A stretch of DNA of 13,852 bases from Candidatus Methylomirabilota bacterium (GTDB lineage Bacteria; Methylomirabilota; Methylomirabilia; Rokubacteriales; CSP1-6), in assembly GCA_046726415.1 (NCBI GenBank), contig JBKPAK010000047.1, forward strand, positions 1-13,852, read 5' to 3'. Under the pieces are notes generated by a model. That model saw only the letters and a program-made list of their open reading frames with translations, did no database searches and was not told where the DNA came from. The position numbers were made by a program, and so were the translations under genes. This document shows, one piece after another, positions 2,774 to 9,146 of the stretch (position 1 is its first letter; each line of letters opens with the position of its first letter).

Positions 2774-3285
2774 CTACCGGCCGCCGGTGACCGGCAGCGT
2801 GACGCCGGTAATGTAGCTGGCCTCGGCCGACGCCAGGAACAGCACGGCGTCGGCGATCTCGTTCGGCTGGCCCAGGCGGCGCAGCGGCGTCATGTGGTTC
2901 GGGCTATATTCCACCGTCTCGTTCAGGGTGCGGAGCATGGCCCCCGCCCGTTCGGTGTCGATGGGGCCGGGCGCCACCGCATTGACGTTGATGCCGTACT
3001 CGGCGAGCTCCAGGGCCACGTCGCGGATGAACCCGTGAATGCCGGCTTTGGCCGCCGAGTAGGCGGAACCACCCTGGTAATAGGCGGTCCACGGTGTGCC
3101 TTCGCGCGCGCCGGAGGAGAGGCAGATGATGCGGCCGGAGCGCTGTCGGACCATGTGAGGCACGGCTGCCCGCGTACAGAGGAAAGCAGACCGCAGATTC
3201 AAGCGCAGCACGAAATCCCAGTCCTCGACCTTCATGTCCCAGATCCGCCGGTCACCACGGCCACCTGATCCTGTACGCGGCCCAT
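2774..3285 (-). pseudogene. SDR (FabG-like) oxidoreductase disrupted by an internal frameshifting deletion
   Basis: ATG at 3285 with GAGGAG RBS gives MGRVQDQVAVVTGGSGT* (SDR beta1 and start of the TGxxxGxG loop; stop at 3232-3234). A different frame carries the C-terminal half (IWDMKVEDWDFVLRLNL...GRIICLSS...YSAAK...INVNAVAPGPIDT...ASYITG, stop 2774-2776). The intervening Rossmann segment, including NNAG, is absent. Confidence 0.85.
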
Positions 3286-6200
3286 CAGCCCTCCTCGACC
3301 GACTGGCTTTGCCGACCGGCATCATAGCAAGGGGGGCCCGCCGCGGCCGCGCGCGCGATGCCGACCGCGGCCAGGCCGCCCTCCAGCTCCACGGTATGAA
3401 CGACAATGCCGCTCGGCGGCGGACCAATGGCCAGCTCGACCGCCAGCGTCTCCGCGCAGAGGTACTCGGAGTGCTCTTCGATCGCTGATTGCCGCTCGGG
3501 GTCCGACGAGACATACACCCGGATGCGATCGTCCACGTTGAGCCCTGTGCCCTTCCGAAGGCGTTGGATCTGGTGGGCGAGCTGTCTCGACAGTCCCTTG
3601 CGCCTCAGGGCGGGCGTGAGGTGCGTATCGACGGCGACGATGAGATCGCCCTCGAGGACCGCCCTGAACGGCCCCGCATCGACCGCCAGCGCGATCGAGG
3701 TCCTCCCCGGTGGCGTCCAGAGCGCGCGTCCGTCGGCCCGGAGCGCATCGGCGACGGCGCGCTCGATCGGCTCGACGTCGACCGCCTCGGCGTTCAGCTC
3801 CTCGCGAAGATCGGCCTCGAACTCGCGCAGCCAGAACACCTGACCAGGTGGCCCGAGGACGAGAACCCTGGCCACTGGCTGGCGCACCCTCAAGCCCGCC
3901 GCGTTCCGCACTGCCAGCCCCACGGTGAGCGCCCGCCGCACGAAGGCCACGCCGGCCTCGAGCTCCTGAGGCGTGTAAGAGGGCGACGTCGGAGCCATCC
4001 AGGCTACCCGCGCCGCCGACTCCGCCTCCGACCCGGGGAAGTCGGTCAAATGCACGCTGCGGGCCGCCCCGGCACTGCGCTCCCCGAGCAGCCCCTGATA
4101 GATGTGCTCGGCCACGAACGGGGTGACCGGGGCCAGGAGTTGACAGATCCGCACCAGAACGTGGAAGAGCGTCTGGTAGGCCACCGTCTTGTGCTCGGTC
4201 ATTTCGCCCTTCCAGAACAGGCGGCGCCGGCGACGGACATACCAGTTCGAGACGTCATCCTGGATGAAATCCTCGAGGGCGCGCACCGCCCGGCGAAGCT
4301 GATAGCCGTCGAGCGCGGCGCGAACCTCGCGGATCGTCGACTCGAGGCGGGCGAGAATCCAGGCTTCCAGCCCGAGCGGTACTTCGGGCGCCGCCGCATC
4401 CGACGGCAACGCCGGCTGGTCCATGTTGGCATACGTGACGAACAGCGTGTAGATGTTCCACAGGGTGAGGAACCGGCGCGTGACGTCCCGCGCCGCCGCA
4501 GAGCCGAACGCGATCGGCTCGGCGACCGCGTGTGATGCGAAAAGGTAGCGGACCACATCGGGTCCCACGCGATCGAGGGCCTCGTCGAGCCAGACCGCGT
4601 TGCCCCAGCTCTTGTGCATCTCGCGGCCGTCCTCTCCCAGCACGCGATCGTGGGCCATGACCGTGCGATAGGGCGCGCGGCCTTCCAGGGTTACCGCCAT
4701 GAAGAGCAACGCGTAGAACCACCCGCGGACCTGCGCCGCCATCTCCACCACGAAGTCGGCCGGAAACCACTGGGCCCAGCGCGACCGGTCGTCGAGATAG
4801 CCCAGGGTCGAGAAGGGGACGATACCCGCGTCGAGCCAACAGTCACCGACCTCGGGCACGCGGGGCACCTCCGAGCCGCACCCCGGGCACTTCAACGTCA
4901 CCTCGTCGATCCAGGGGCGATGCAGCTCGGGGAGAGCCGTGGCGACCGCGGGGTCGATGGCGAGTCGCCGCAATTCGTCGGGCGAACCCACCACCGTGAG
5001 TCGGCCGCACGTCGTGCATGGGTAGAAGGGCAGGGGGAGTCCCCACACGCGCTTGCGCGAGATGCACCAGTCGCCCATGTTGGTGAGCCAGTCCTTCATG
5101 CGCAGGCCCATGTGCTCGGGGTGCCAGCTCACCCCGGCGTTGGCGCGGAGCGCGCGCGGCCGAAGCTCGTCGGCCCGGATGAACCACTCGTCGACTAGAC
5201 GGAAGATCAGCTGGTGACCACAGCGCCAGCATGACGGGTAGCGGTGGCGGTGCGTCGCCTCGTGGTACAGTCGGCCCTCGGTGCGCAGCCTCCTCACCAC
5301 GTCGGCCGTCGCCTCGAACACGCTGCGATGTTCCATCTCGCCAAACCCCGGCCCATAACGACCTTCCTCGTCGATGGCCGCCACGATGGGCAGCCCGTAT
5401 CGCTGTCCCAGCTCGAAGTCGTTCTGACCGCAGCCGGGCGCGATGTGGACGATGCCGGTCCCTTCGCGGGCCGCCACGTCGTCCCATCCGACCACGCGAT
5501 GCTCGATGGACCGCTGCACCGGGAGATCGCTGAAGGGCGCCACGTAGTGAAGCCCCACGAGGTCCGTTCCCTTCACGCGCTGCTGAACGTCGCCGAGGCC
5601 GGGAAGACTGGGACGGGCCGCCGCCGCCACCCAGTAGCGCCAGTCCCCGCCGGCGACGCTCTCATATGCCGCGTCGGGATGGACGGCCACGGCCACGTTG
5701 GCGGGAAGCGTCCAGGGAGTGGTCGTCCACGCCAGGAGGGCCGTGCGTTCCTGGCCGAGGATCGGGAACGCGACCACCACCGACTGGTGGGTGACGTCGG
5801 CGTAGGACTCCAGCATCTCGTGCTGGGAGATCGAGGTGCCACAGCGGACGCACCACGGCATGACCCGGTGACCGGAGTAGATCCAGCTTCGCCGGTGGCA
5901 CTCCTGGAGGAAGTGCCAGATGTACCCGATGTTGGCATCCGACATGGTGTAGTAGGAGTGGGGCCAGTCCATCCACTGCCCCAGCCGCTTCGACTGCTCG
6001 GTCTGCAGCGCGGCGAAACACAGGACGCGCTCGCGGCAGGCCCGCGCGAACGCCGCGTGCCCCATCGCCTCGATGTCGCGCTTGGAATTGAGCCCGAGCG
6101 CCTTCTCGACCTCGACTTCCACCCACAAGCCCTGGCAGTCGAAGCCGTTCTGGAAGCGCTGCTCGAAGCCGCCCATGGCCTTGTAGCGCTGGACGATGTC

Positions 6201-6392
6201 TTTATAGGTTCGTCCGCGGGCGTGGTGGACTCCCATGGGGTTGTTGGCGGTGATCGGGCCGTCCAGGAAGGAGAAGCGTGGCCCGCCGCGATTCTTGGCC
6301 ACGAGCTGCGCGAAGACGTGTTCGCGCTCCCAGAAGGCTCGCGTTTTGCCGGCCATGGCCACGAAGTCGAGCGGTCCCGGCGTGCTGAACAT
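3285..6392 (-). CDS. ileS: Isoleucine--tRNA ligase, type 2 (IleRS2), with non-canonical GVHH/EMHKS signature motifs
   Basis: 1035 aa. Motifs 'FLDGPITANNPMGVHH', 'GFDCQGLWVE', editing 'WTTTPWTLPAN' and 'GTGIVHIAPGCGQND', 'DWCISRKRVWG', 'RVPEVGDCWLDAG', 'QVRGWFY', 'EMHKSWGN' and 'SNWYVRRRRRLFW'. It has an IleRS2-type C-terminus ('GLSRQLAHQIQRLRK...LNVDDRI...ETLA') and no C-terminal IleRS1 zinc finger. GGGGGA RBS upstream. Confidence 0.96.
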   Translation of the reverse strand: MFSTPGPLDFVAMAGKTRAFWEREHVFAQLVAKNRGGPRFSFLDGPITANNPMGVHHARGRTYKDIVQRYKAMGGFEQRFQNGFDCQGLWVEVEVEKALGLNSKRDIEAMGHAAFARACRERVLCFAALQTEQSKRLGQWMDWPHSYYTMSDANIGYIWHFLQECHRRSWIYSGHRVMPWCVRCGTSISQHEMLESYADVTHQSVVVAFPILGQERTALLAWTTTPWTLPANVAVAVHPDAAYESVAGGDWRYWVAAAARPSLPGLGDVQQRVKGTDLVGLHYVAPFSDLPVQRSIEHRVVGWDDVAAREGTGIVHIAPGCGQNDFELGQRYGLPIVAAIDEEGRYGPGFGEMEHRSVFEATADVVRRLRTEGRLYHEATHRHRYPSCWRCGHQLIFRLVDEWFIRADELRPRALRANAGVSWHPEHMGLRMKDWLTNMGDWCISRKRVWGLPLPFYPCTTCGRLTVVGSPDELRRLAIDPAVATALPELHRPWIDEVTLKCPGCGSEVPRVPEVGDCWLDAGIVPFSTLGYLDDRSRWAQWFPADFVVEMAAQVRGWFYALLFMAVTLEGRAPYRTVMAHDRVLGEDGREMHKSWGNAVWLDEALDRVGPDVVRYLFASHAVAEPIAFGSAAARDVTRRFLTLWNIYTLFVTYANMDQPALPSDAAAPEVPLGLEAWILARLESTIREVRAALDGYQLRRAVRALEDFIQDDVSNWYVRRRRRLFWKGEMTEHKTVAYQTLFHVLVRICQLLAPVTPFVAEHIYQGLLGERSAGAARSVHLTDFPGSEAESAARVAWMAPTSPSYTPQELEAGVAFVRRALTVGLAVRNAAGLRVRQPVARVLVLGPPGQVFWLREFEADLREELNAEAVDVEPIERAVADALRADGRALWTPPGRTSIALAVDAGPFRAVLEGDLIVAVDTHLTPALRRKGLSRQLAHQIQRLRKGTGLNVDDRIRVYVSSDPERQSAIEEHSEYLCAETLAVELAIGPPPSGIVVHTVELEGGLAAVGIARAAAAGPPCYDAGRQSQSVEEG
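3321..3329 (-). promoter_or_regulatory. Putative extended -10 promoter (TGCTATGAT) for the SDR/amidohydrolase genes
   Basis: The minus strand reads TG-C-TATGAT, an AT-rich island about 36 nt upstream of the SDR ATG, inside the last codons of the ileS ORF. Confidence 0.45.
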
Positions 6393-6583
6393 TGGTCTGT
6401 CCCCCGTGTCTGATCTCGTCGAACCCGGGTTCTGGCGCCGGTGACCACGCCCGACCTCACACGAGGTTGGAAACTCAACGGCCGCCAGGAACCCTGACGG
6501 CCGTGTGAAATCGATTGAGTCGATCCGGAACCGTCAGTTCACGGCGTCTCCCGGCCTATGACTGACGGTCTAATTCGACTCAT
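6393..6583 (-). promoter_or_regulatory. Putative leader-peptide attenuator (structured 5' leader of ileS)
   Basis: Minus-strand segments: 1 ACCGTCAGT (6569-6561), 2 ACTGACGGT (6538-6530), 3 ACGGCCGTCAGG (6504-6493), 4 CCTGGCGGCCGT (6489-6478), followed by TGAGTTT. The 1:2, 2:3 and 3:4 pairings are mutually exclusive. Confidence 0.7.
6539..6583 (-). CDS. Putative leaderless leader peptide MSRIRPSVIGRETP (14 aa)
   Basis: ATG AGT CGA ATT AGA CCG TCA GTC ATA GGC CGG GAG ACG CCG TGA. The ATG lies 6 nt after a TACTAT -10 box with no SD sequence. Two Ile codons flank helix segment 1, and the stop abuts segment 2. Confidence 0.65.
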   Translation of the reverse strand: MSRIRPSVIGRETP

Positions 6584-6589
6584 GGCGCG

Positions 6590-6618
6590 ATAGTAGCGCA
6601 CGCCGCCCCTCGGCACAA
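6590..6618 (-). promoter_or_regulatory. Putative sigma70-type promoter for the ileS leader
   Basis: TTGTGC (6618-6613), a 17-nt spacer, then TACTAT (6595-6590). The predicted +1 coincides with the A of the uORF ATG (6583). Confidence 0.65.
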
Positions 6619-6770
6619 GCAACACCTCGCTCGGCCATCGCGGCCGCCCGTCGCGGAGCGGCTTGACGAAGACCGCCCTGGCGATGCCCTCGACGGGCCC
6701 AGGTCTTTAGCGGCACTCTAGACGAGCGCAACGCGCGCGATGAGGTGAGGGCAGAATCCGAGGGGTGTTC

Positions 6771-9146
6771 ATGACCGTGATCCTGCTGCTCTACGCGGCG
6801 ACCTTGTTCGTGGGGGCCACCTTGCTGTTCGCGGTTCAGCCAATGGTCGGCAAGATGATCCTGCCCCTCCTCGGCGGCACCCCGGCCGTGTGGAGCACCT
6901 GCATGGTGTTCTTCCAGGCCGCGCTGCTGGGCGGCTACGCCTACGCCCATGCCACCACGGCCTGGCTGGGCGCCTCCCGGCAGGCGATCCTGCACCTCGC
7001 GATGCTGGCGGTGCCGCTGGGCGTATTGCCGCTCGTCGTGAACCCCGCCCTTCTGCGCGGCGGGGAGTCCAACCCGGTCCTGGATGTGCTCATCGTCCTC
7101 TCGGTGTCGGTGGGCCTGCCCTTCCTCGTGGTCAGCGCCACCAACCCGATGCTCCAGAGGTGGTTCACCCATACCGGCCACCCGGCCGCACGCGACCCCT
7201 ACTTCCTCTACGCGGCGAGCAACCTCGGGAGCATGCTGGCTCTACTCGGCTATCCCACCCTCATCGAGCCGCGACTGCACGTCAGGAGCTATGGCTGGTT
7301 GTCGCAGGCGCAGCTCTGGAGCCTGGGCTATATCGTGTTGGCCGTCCTGATCGTGCTGTGCGCGCTGATCCTCTGGCGCAGCCCTCCGGCGGCCGGCGCG
7401 GCGGTCCTCGAGGTGACGGCCTTGCCCTCGTCGCCCGGCGGAGGGCCGGTCAGCGCGGACGGTTCGAGCGCGTGGCCGCGGCGGGATGGCGCGCGCAGCG
7501 ATGCCCTCTCGGTGGGCCGCCGTCTGCGCTGGGTGGTCCTGGCCTTCGTGCCGTCGAGCCTCCTCCTCGGCGCGACGACATTCATCACGACCGACATCGC
7601 CGCCGTCCCTCTGCTATGGGTGCTCCCGCTCGCCATCTATCTCCTGAGCTTCATTGTCGCCTTCGGCCACTGGCCGGCCCGCTTCCATCGGATGGTGGTG
7701 GCGGTCATGCGGCCCCTGGTCCTCGTGGTGATCTTCCTCATGGTCTCTGGCTTCCGCCAGCGCATGTGGGTGACCGTGCTGTGGCACTTCTTGGCCCTTC
7801 TGGTGGTCGCGCTCGCCTGCCACGGAGAGCTGGCCCTCGATCGCCCGTCGCCCCGTCGCCTCACCGAGTTCTATCTGCTGATTTCGGTGGGGGGGGTGCT
7901 GGGCGGGTTCTTTAACGCCCTCGTGGCCCCGGCCATCTTCAGCGCACTCGTGGAGTACCCGCTAGCCATGGCGGCCGCGTGCGTCCTATCGAGCCGTCGC
8001 CGTCTGGCCCGCGACACGACGGGCCGCGCCCTGCTCCTGGACGTGGCGCTCCCCTTCGGGGTGATCGCGCTGGCGCTCGTCCTCTACTCCAAGTCCATCG
8101 CCGTTCGCGTCGACTTGGCCTCTCTCACCCGCGTGCTCGGCATCCCATCCGAGTGGGCCACGAAATGGCTGACGCCGGTCGAGGGGCCGCTGAGCGCGAT
8201 CCTCGTGTTCGGTCCGCCGCTGGTGGCCGCGTTCTTCCTGAGGCACCGGCCGGCCGCGCTGGCCCTCGCCCTGGTGGGCGTGCTGGTGGTGGCCGAGTTC
8301 GTCAATGCCCGGAACGGCGACCGAATCCATCAGGCGCGGAGCTTCTTCGGCGTCCTGGAAGTCACCCGCGACCGCGATAAGGAGGGCTATACCGAGTTGC
8401 GCCACGGCACGACCCTGCACGGCCGTCAGAGTCGCGATCCCAAGCGCCAGGGCGAGCCGCTCTCCTACTACCACCGTGCGGGGCCCGTCGGACAGATCTT
8501 CGCCGAGCTGGATCGACGGGACGGCGCCCGCCGCGTGGCGGTGATCGGGCTCGGCACCGGAACCCTGGCCGCCTACGCGCGGCTCGGTGACGCCATGACC
8601 TTCTATGAGATCGACCGACTCGTTCGGGACATTGCCTCCGACCGCACGTACTTCACGTACTTCGCCGACGCGCGCGATCGAGGGGCGACCTTGCGGGTGG
8701 AGCTGGGGGATGCCCGCGTCCGCCTGGAGGCCGTGAAACGAGACCGGCCGGGAGAGCGGTATGACGTGATCGTCGTCGATGCGTTCACTTCGGACGCTAT
8801 CCCCGTGCATCTGCTCACGCGGGAAGCCCTGCGACTCTATCTCGAGATGCTGGCGCCGGACGGGCTGCTCGCGCTCCACCTCTCCAACCGCTACCTCGAT
8901 CTCGAGCCGGTGGTGGCGAACCTCGCCGAGGACGCCGGCCTCCGTGGGCGGCTGCTCCAGCACGACGAGTCCGCGGAAACAGAGGGCGCCTCCGCATCGA
9001 CGTGGGCCGTGCTGGCCAGGACGCCCCAGGCGTTGGGAAACCTCGCCCGCGACCACCGCTGGACCACCGCGAAGCTCGAGAGCAACCCCCGGGTAAGCGC
9101 GTGGACTGACGACTTTCACAACCTGCTGTCCGTCTTCAAATGGTGA
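6771..9146 (+). CDS. Fused multi-TM membrane domain / spermidine synthase-like SAM-dependent transferase
   Basis: N-terminal hydrophobic helices ('LLFAVQPMVGKMILPLLGGTPAVWSTCMVFFQ', 'DPYFLYAASNLGS'). C-terminal class I SAM-fold motifs 'VAVIGLGTGTLA', 'FYEID', 'GDAR', 'YDVIVVDAFTSDAIPVHLLT' and 'WTDDFHNL'. GAGGGG RBS before ATG 6771; an alternative GTG lies at 6765. Confidence 0.9.
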   Translation: MTVILLLYAATLFVGATLLFAVQPMVGKMILPLLGGTPAVWSTCMVFFQAALLGGYAYAHATTAWLGASRQAILHLAMLAVPLGVLPLVVNPALLRGGESNPVLDVLIVLSVSVGLPFLVVSATNPMLQRWFTHTGHPAARDPYFLYAASNLGSMLALLGYPTLIEPRLHVRSYGWLSQAQLWSLGYIVLAVLIVLCALILWRSPPAAGAAVLEVTALPSSPGGGPVSADGSSAWPRRDGARSDALSVGRRLRWVVLAFVPSSLLLGATTFITTDIAAVPLLWVLPLAIYLLSFIVAFGHWPARFHRMVVAVMRPLVLVVIFLMVSGFRQRMWVTVLWHFLALLVVALACHGELALDRPSPRRLTEFYLLISVGGVLGGFFNALVAPAIFSALVEYPLAMAAACVLSSRRRLARDTTGRALLLDVALPFGVIALALVLYSKSIAVRVDLASLTRVLGIPSEWATKWLTPVEGPLSAILVFGPPLVAAFFLRHRPAALALALVGVLVVAEFVNARNGDRIHQARSFFGVLEVTRDRDKEGYTELRHGTTLHGRQSRDPKRQGEPLSYYHRAGPVGQIFAELDRRDGARRVAVIGLGTGTLAAYARLGDAMTFYEIDRLVRDIASDRTYFTYFADARDRGATLRVELGDARVRLEAVKRDRPGERYDVIVVDAFTSDAIPVHLLTREALRLYLEMLAPDGLLALHLSNRYLDLEPVVANLAEDAGLRGRLLQHDESAETEGASASTWAVLARTPQALGNLARDHRWTTAKLESNPRVSAWTDDFHNLLSVFKW

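Follow-up and report, generated by a model that had tools for sequence, protein, structure and literature searches.

The window analysed here, a stretch of 13,852 nucleotides from a Candidatus Methylomirabilota bacterium, carries a gene for an auxiliary isoleucyl-tRNA synthetase (ileS2) and prompts one to ask in what way expression of such a backup enzyme is governed. Published control of auxiliary, mupirocin-insensitive IleRS2, in the accessible parts of the sources consulted, is exerted by a T-box, and the leader that precedes the gene in the window points to a second, ribosome-based solution for the same gene. Judged by its conservation among relatives, this is a real regulatory leader; it very probably acts as a ribosome-mediated switch that senses Ile-tRNA on behalf of the backup ileS2, and we consider it probable, with somewhat less assurance, that the switch is a transcription attenuator with termination as its main output. 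The initial annotation of this DNA had proposed an attenuator of this kind, an interpretation supported by the conserved upstream open reading frame (uORF) and its Ile codon, by the lack of a T-box, and by folding models of the nascent RNA. The elements involved are the following:

6613..6618, minus strand: -35-like hexamer TTGTGC, read from the sequence; position frequencies weak in 75 leaders
6590..6595, minus strand: -10 hexamer TACTAT, 17 nt past TTGTGC and 6 nt before the AUG
6539..6583, minus strand: leader uORF MSRIRPSVIGRETP, 14 codons plus stop (ATG at 6583, stop at 6541-6539)
6570..6577, minus strand: CGAATTAG, consisting of Arg3 (CGA), Ile4 (ATT, 6574-6572) and positions 1 and 2 of codon 5
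6557..6559, minus strand: Ile9 (ATA), auxiliary Ile codon, partly paired within helix 1:2
6561..6569, minus strand: segment 1 (codons 5-8), partner of segment 2
6530..6538, minus strand: segment 2, with segments 1 or 3 as alternative partners
6493..6504, minus strand: segment 3, partner of 2 (antiterminator) or of 4
6478..6489, minus strand: segment 4, which together with segment 3 makes a 12-bp hairpin (3:4) of about -23 kcal/mol
6504-6478, minus strand: the 3:4 hairpin, with one G-U and a GTT loop
6471..6477, minus strand: interrupted U-tract TGAGTTT after 3:4 (family consensus TTTCGTTT)
6423..6440, minus strand: segment 5, able to base-pair with the 3:4 loop plus segment 4 and, by its CCC end, with the Shine-Dalgarno (SD) region
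6400..6409, minus strand: segment 6, holding the ileS2 SD sequence
6575..6582 (5' arm) and 6523-6516 (3' arm), minus strand: outer helix, unconserved
3285..6392, minus strand: ileS2, encoding a 1035-aa IleRS2 with the GVHH signature, auxiliary copy

A re-reading of the sequence found all features of the initial annotation on the minus strand at their coordinates, including segment 1 (6569-6561) between Ile4 and Ile9, segment 2 (6538-6530) right after the stop, and an ATG without SD sequence, 6 nt after TACTAT, that opens the 14-codon uORF; the AUG and its spacing are also conserved in relatives. Segments 5 and 6 (6440-6400) extend the leader past the end originally given to it, and through them the ileS2 ribosome-binding site may come under additional control. 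From the leader AUG to the ileS start the fold reaches -94.4 kcal/mol (z = -4.98), with none of 200 shuffles equally stable. The leader is single-copy in the genome and has no plasmid match, and none of 50 pattern matches in viral sequences had a leader-profile or ileS match; a repeat or mobile element was rejected on these grounds. A generic scanner called neither promoter nor terminator in the window, and the labels given to these two elements therefore rest on conservation; the U-tract, whose weakness had been acknowledged at the outset, is indeed interrupted and falls below the scanner's threshold. The proposed promoter, TTGTGC and TACTAT separated by 17 nt, stands in part: the sequence is present and TAnnnT is kept, but the scanner was silent and the -35 hexamer is weakly conserved. 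Similarly, the outer helix (6582-6575/6523-6516) exists in the window but not as a conserved part of the leader, a role ruled out by the finding of a duplex of -8 kcal/mol or lower in 10/77 leaders, of which that of the window is the strongest. An extra helix (6515-6505/6462-6451, minus strand), whose 3' arm lies beyond the U-tract, lengthens 3:4 when the full-length leader of the window is folded.

The product of the ORF at 6392-3285 matches TIGR00392 with 692 bits, above the cut-off, and the MupA/MupB models below their cut-offs. Its translation carries the swapped GVHH signature, and GVHH or GIHH is found in the IleRS2 of all 13 genomes that encode one, whereas the second IleRS of the window's genome (G000), encoded on contig C313, has HMGH and KMSKS. 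Since GVHH raises the Ki of mupirocin 200-fold in two IleRS2 enzymes, according to the part of the report available (10.1101/2023.01.31.526100), the IleRS2 of the window is, by analogy, probably insensitive to a mupirocin-type antibiotic. Another ileS locus accompanies ileS2 in 13/13 genomes (full-length in nine, partial in four), with the signature motif of this other ileS examined in G000 alone.

Relatives of the leader were gathered by two independent routes, loci being chosen either by their IleRS2 protein alone or, in metagenomes, by a pattern built from segments 2, 3 and 4 only. A leader with CGAATTAG is present in all 13 protein-selected loci, and the uORF-free pattern led to 83 metagenome loci, 82 of which have an AUG 46-47 nt before segment 2 and a TAnnnT upstream; a uORF conserved in homologous leaders, as the proposal of an attenuator presupposed, is thus recovered by either route (82/83 and 13/13). 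The 83 metagenome and nine genomic loci make up a set of 92 with 75 distinct leaders (77 with two more genomic ones); all are kin from one family, and the counts are therefore not independent events. Wherever at least 140 nt of downstream sequence are available (85/92 loci), the leader runs into ileS2, the seven loci without a match having 120 nt or fewer. L190, the sole leader of the 92 that lacks the uORF start and CGAATTAG, retains segments 2-6 and ileS2, and may owe its form to decay of the leader, to a rearrangement or to chimerism of the contig.

In these leaders TAnnnT lies 6-7 nt before the AUG, with T at -7 in 74/75, and a TG at -15/-14 (65/75 and 72/75, respectively) makes up an extended TG-n-TAnnnT in most relatives, replacing the -35 hexamer. 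The position of TACTAT implies a leaderless transcript, whose putative start site coincides with the AUG at 6583. The family uORF follows the pattern M-x-R-I-[S/R] and has 16 codons in 68/75 leaders and 14 in 7/75, a one-base indel separating the two classes, both of which stop at or inside segment 2; its AUG is invariant, in contrast to codon 2, whose first two bases vary without restriction. A leader profile run against 69 upstream regions of related loci, 11/80 loci being omitted for short upstream DNA, gave seven matches, all within the clade and none outside. A relaxed promoter-plus-uORF pattern that allowed synonymous MxRI starts was matched in 20/251 genomes, 13 of them by their ileS2 leaders and the other seven, to be compared with six for the reversed-pattern control, by unrelated sequences.

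The three helices on which a switch would depend are mutually exclusive, with mean energies of -19.6, -18.5 and -22.9 kcal/mol for 1:2, 2:3 and 3:4, respectively. Within helix 1:2, the pairs at nt 16-23 are each kept in 64-77 of the 77 leaders, that at nt 14 in 77/77 and that at nt 15 in 23/77, while the nine pairs of 2:3 (fixed by the pattern in the metagenome loci) and the 12 pairs of 3:4 occur in 77/77. The segment 2 core, CTGACGG, is found in 13/13 protein-selected loci, and segments 2-4 are nearly invariant in this unbiased set too. The suggestion that the helices would be conserved with covariation is borne out as far as the pairs are concerned, but covariation is nearly absent, being limited to two two-sided changes, one in helix 1:2 (U-A in the window vs C-G) and one in 3:4 (A-U to G-C in G225). 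This near-absence counts against the model, in a set that stems from one family and in which segments 2-4 are fixed by the pattern in the metagenome loci. At least five T within 8 nt follow 3:4 in 70/75 leaders, exactly at the foot of the hairpin.

Folding of the nascent RNA was modelled in 70 leaders, with the RNA cut just after segment 3 and the ribosome represented as a mask with three footprint sizes. With Ile4 in the A site, 2:3 forms in 66-67/70 leaders (0.60-0.98 in the window); with the ribosome at the stop it forms in 0/70, a zero that follows from the mask itself. In the absence of a ribosome 1:2 leads in 39/70 leaders, being complete in the window, and 2:3 in 30/70, the latter being a point against the model. 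The A-site codons that induce begin at 2-4 and end at 12-13, according to the footprint assumed, a zone that ends short of the stop; Ile4 lies near its 5' edge and Ile9 in its middle. On full-length RNA with segment 1 masked, 3:4 still wins in 55/67 leaders, and forcing 2:3 costs 3.2 kcal/mol on average. Since 3:4 wins at equilibrium, the switch must be kinetic, with 2:3 acting during transcription, as in classical attenuators; the masking exercise proposed in the initial annotation hence yields a geometry that works on nascent RNA but not at full-length equilibrium.

The mechanism that we favour combines this modelled folding switch with translation of the uORF, stalling and termination, which we infer. 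Transcription would start at the AUG, and a ribosome would load on the leaderless uORF. With ample Ile-tRNA, the ribosome would get to the stop and cover segment 2, and 3:4 together with the U-tract would halt RNA polymerase (OFF). If IleRS1 were inhibited, mupirocin-type compounds being the presumed inducers, or if Ile were short, a stall at Ile4 (AUU), and secondarily at Ile9, would cover segment 1, and 2:3 would form before segment 4 is made (ON); segment 4 would then become available to segment 5, and their pairing may also release the SD sequence. Newly made IleRS2 would recharge tRNA-Ile and the switch would shut again. The genome encodes ilvC and TilS and thus probably makes Ile and reads AUA, which renders the inhibition of IleRS1 the likelier natural trigger. 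Two points from the literature, both drawn from partial texts, stand against the mechanism: theory predicts a shallow response from one or two control codons (PMC1183508), and peptidyl-tRNA drop-off has been reported where a codon-4 stall falls (PMC6920384, PMC10192219).

The alternative that survives best, possible although we would not expect it to hold, retains the Ile-tRNA sensor and shifts the output to translation. According to this scheme 3:4 would terminate poorly and leave segment 5 to mask the SD sequence (5:6), and a stalled ribosome would bring about 2:3, then 4:5, thereby freeing the SD in the manner of ermC-type cascades. The interrupted U-tract would fit such an output, as would segment 5 itself, which does not appear in the initial annotation; it is conserved between variable spacers and visible in most full leaders, and would be superfluous for a pure terminator. 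In 38/70 leaders, though not in the window (8/100), the 4:5 duplex outdoes 95 or more of 100 shuffles, and opening the ribosome-binding site is cheaper in the 2:3 state by more than 1 kcal/mol in 42/70 leaders, the reverse being true in 11/70. However, the mean effect is small (an opening cost of 12.0 in the 2:3 state vs 13.1 kcal/mol) and reversed in the window (14.7 vs 11.0), 4:5 forms in no more than 34/70 leaders when 2:3 is forced, and the location of the U-rich tract exactly at the 3:4 foot in 70/75 leaders counts against this output. The SD sequence is paired to segment 5 with P > 0.5 in 54/70 leaders with 3:4 forced and in 41/70 with 2:3 forced. An arrangement in which 1:2, 3:4 and 5:6 make up the OFF state and 2:3 and 4:5 the ON state is therefore possible as a second, translational layer, and is partly supported by these models.

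If the sensor is a ribosome, the codons at which it would stall are of particular importance. Both Ile codons of the window had been put forward in this role, but while Ile4 is invariant, roughly one leader in four lacks Ile9. All 77 distinct leaders read CGA-ATT at codons 3-4 (CGAATTAG 77/77), and codon 5 is AGN in 75/75; codon 9, in turn, encodes Ile in 57/75 (ATA 49, ATC 7, ATT 1) and is ATG in 12. A second Ile is present in 65/77 leaders, the other 12 having no Ile after codon 4. The number of Ile codons per uORF ranges from one to four, mostly two and non-adjacent, with adjacent pairs in few leaders (e.g. L012, L122), and the tandem run of control codons seen in classical leaders is absent from the family uORFs. 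Because Ile9 is not invariant, Ile4 is the likely sensor codon, and its location just outside helix 1:2 means that pairing cannot account for its invariance.

The identity of the codons is itself a puzzle. Across the genome ATT accounts for 10% of the codons for Ile and CGA for 10% of those for Arg, and CGAATTAG is fixed at its wobble positions despite the rarity of these codons, which argues for selection on bases and not on amino acids alone. By comparison, in 53 ileS2 coding regions 2/41 invariant residues keep a single codon, both C/G-ending, with a mean third-position identity of 0.69. Gene starts in the genome do not favour the pair, ATT making up 14/100 Ile codons at position 4 and CGA-ATT 0/11 Arg3-Ile4 starts; an N-terminal codon bias behind the invariance is thus unsupported, as far as approximate gene calls allow. 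Helix 1:2 accounts for G14, paired in 77/77 leaders, but not for CGA-AUU-A, the slow decoding of which could deepen the stall.

The same observations bear on a general stalling sensor, in which any slow ribosome at codons 3-12 (owing to Arg shortage at CGA, ribosome-binding antibiotics or uncoupling) would induce ileS2, with Ile4 kept for initiation or early elongation and not for sensing. In the model, a stall at any A-site position from about 3 to 12 is inducing, Arg3 CGA matches Ile4 in its invariance, and codons 3-5 are described as influencing early elongation in the available text of one study (PMC6920384). Nevertheless, the regulated gene encodes an IleRS and the matching invariant residue is Ile, and the pair is not favoured at gene starts; this explanation is improbable. 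Marginally less credible still is the notion that a protein or RNA would recognize CGAAUUAG at the nucleotide level and mask segment 1 by its binding, the uORF being incidental. This would suit a near-palindromic motif whose eight bases, wobble positions included, are invariant (77/77), as opposed to the 2/41 single-codon residues of ileS2. It is countered by the invariance of the AUG next to a codon 2 whose first two bases are free, by the fact that both length classes stop at segment 2, and by the 12 occurrences of the motif in the genome. As for RNA partners, pairing with 16S rRNA was discarded, there being no complementary site in the 16S of five relatives, and pairing with the tRNA-Ile T-arm was judged a chance match, since it needs two G-U pairs and would be improved by AUC, which never occurs.

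A degenerate T-box riboswitch, which the initial annotation had named as another possible source of the helices, is hardly conceivable: a covariance search with RF00230 gave no match at E up to 10 in window positions 6000-7200 and none that reached the gathering score in the window or in any of 11 related loci, but found T-boxes at 5/20 scanned GVHH-type ileS2 loci, all labelled Chloroflexota. In T-box specifier loops the codon is followed by A, as in AUU-A here, a likeness in favour of a T-box, as are the T-boxes of those related genes; however, this AUU sits in a 5' single strand and not in a Stem I loop, and TGGTNCC, the consensus of the T-box UGGN bulge, is lacking in the leader, its six window matches all lying elsewhere. 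On the strength of the covariance search and the missing bulge motif, the T-box was rejected. Rfam matches to GP_knot2 and microRNA families (E 2.7-8.9) were far below cut-offs and were taken as chance. Upstream of ileS2 at another locus, L063, a T-box-like antiterminator and terminator can be recognized by eye, below the Rfam gathering score.

The ribosome-mediated attenuator can be placed among known systems. The classical leader-peptide attenuators, those of E. coli trp, thr, ilv and pheST, have in common with it a uORF with cognate codons, alternative 2:3 and 3:4 pairings, and a GC hairpin with a U-tract; the leader differs from them in its one invariant control codon at position 4, where theirs form a run near the end, as well as in its leaderless start, weak U-tract, segments that reach the SD sequence, and ileS2 as target. 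In ermC-type translational attenuation, the SD sequence is freed through a helix cascade after a ribosome stall. The closest logical match, to go by the title of the 2010 report of Vecchione and Sello (as cited in PMC4787780), is Streptomyces coelicolor trpRS1, an antibiotic-resistant auxiliary synthetase that is reportedly under ribosome-mediated transcriptional attenuation, but which involves Trp and indolmycin in another phylum instead of Ile. Leader-peptide attenuators have also been predicted for Streptomyces trpS and leuS (PMC1262725, in part) and a uORF attenuator described for M. tuberculosis ilvB1 (PMC13236596, in part).

With regard to ileS itself, T-boxes (RF00230) act on the same gene and the same signal, which is read there by RNA and here presumably by the ribosome; actinobacterial ileS T-boxes are described as translational, with a masked SD, in the portion of the source available (PMC1262725). 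In Priestia megaterium, ileS2 rises about 70-fold with mupirocin, and control by a T-box and CodY has been proposed, according to the accessible part of a preprint (10.1101/2022.02.09.479832). A housekeeping IleRS1 is paired there with an auxiliary IleRS2 for which a response to uncharged tRNA-Ile is expected. This arrangement is shared with the genome of the window, where a probable uORF switch without a T-box contrasts with the T-box and CodY. The Caulobacter ileS leader CDS CCNA_03934, used as a negative control in a work available in part (PMC4117421), is alike in being a small ORF before ileS, a comparison made by description, with no mechanism given in that part. Within the literature covered, which included few subscription papers, no description of the leader or of an ileS2 uORF attenuator was found.

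A GVHH/GIHH IleRS2 is present in 13/251 Methylomirabilia genomes, within one family and six genera; a search of the two other genomes from the window's genus (95% and 72% complete) did not find it. Related loci are labelled Candidatus Rokubacteria or Methylomirabilia. In a FastTree phylogeny of 69 rows (midpoint root; two long, probably mistranslated branches; loci without a 700-residue frame omitted), the leader-bearing group stands apart from the 60 other rows. The upstream neighbours differ, with only two pairs among the 13 genomes sharing upstream DNA, which indicates that promoter, leader and ileS2 behave as one portable unit. It is tempting, if speculative, to think that this cassette, in the place that a T-box occupies in related genes, is dedicated to detecting IleRS1 inhibitors in soil: a leaderless ribosome would be caught at a hungry fourth codon, CGA-AUU-A would tune the stall, and a six-segment cascade would govern both termination and the SD sequence. 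The leader has a parallel in the Streptomyces trpRS1 case. It suggests that its host lineage, which comprises abundant uncultured soil bacteria, meets IleRS inhibitors in nature. It also poses the questions of whether an attenuator can be run by a single control codon, the fourth of a leaderless message, and of why a particular pair of rare codons is retained in every case. Being 190 nt long, it could serve as a reporter of Ile-tRNA charging for finding IleRS inhibitors.

Several minor observations were made along the way. A second uORF that opens with MSRIRP, here in common codons, occurs in the same genome (G000, contig C140, AUG at 2403, plus strand; L290), with 35 codons, a leaderless arrangement and an extended -10; a check of 158 family genomes did not find it to be conserved, and it runs into the start of a gene presumably related to MmgE/PrpD. 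A leader peptide was looked for at ilvB and none was seen. In the window, the ATG of an SDR gene (2774-3285, minus strand) overlaps the ileS2 stop; with respect to a 78% identical paralog on C340 this gene has an internal deletion of about 75-80 codons and a frame change, and may be a pseudogene or an assembly error. Divergent from the leader lies a fused MFS/spermidine synthase family gene (NF037959; 6765-9146, plus strand); it is the upstream neighbour in none of the other 12 genomes. The contig of L039, labelled Candidatus Eisenbacteria, encodes an IleRS2 almost identical to that of L044 (Methylomirabilia) with 10 nt of upstream sequence, and may reflect misbinning or transfer. Finally, L274 and L275 (from about 1513, plus strand) are two leaderless genes, which we take to encode AhpD/CMD-like proteins, in both of which an in-frame stop occurs at the same position, after Cys-Pro-Phe; conserved sequence continues beyond this stop, which possibly encodes selenocysteine.
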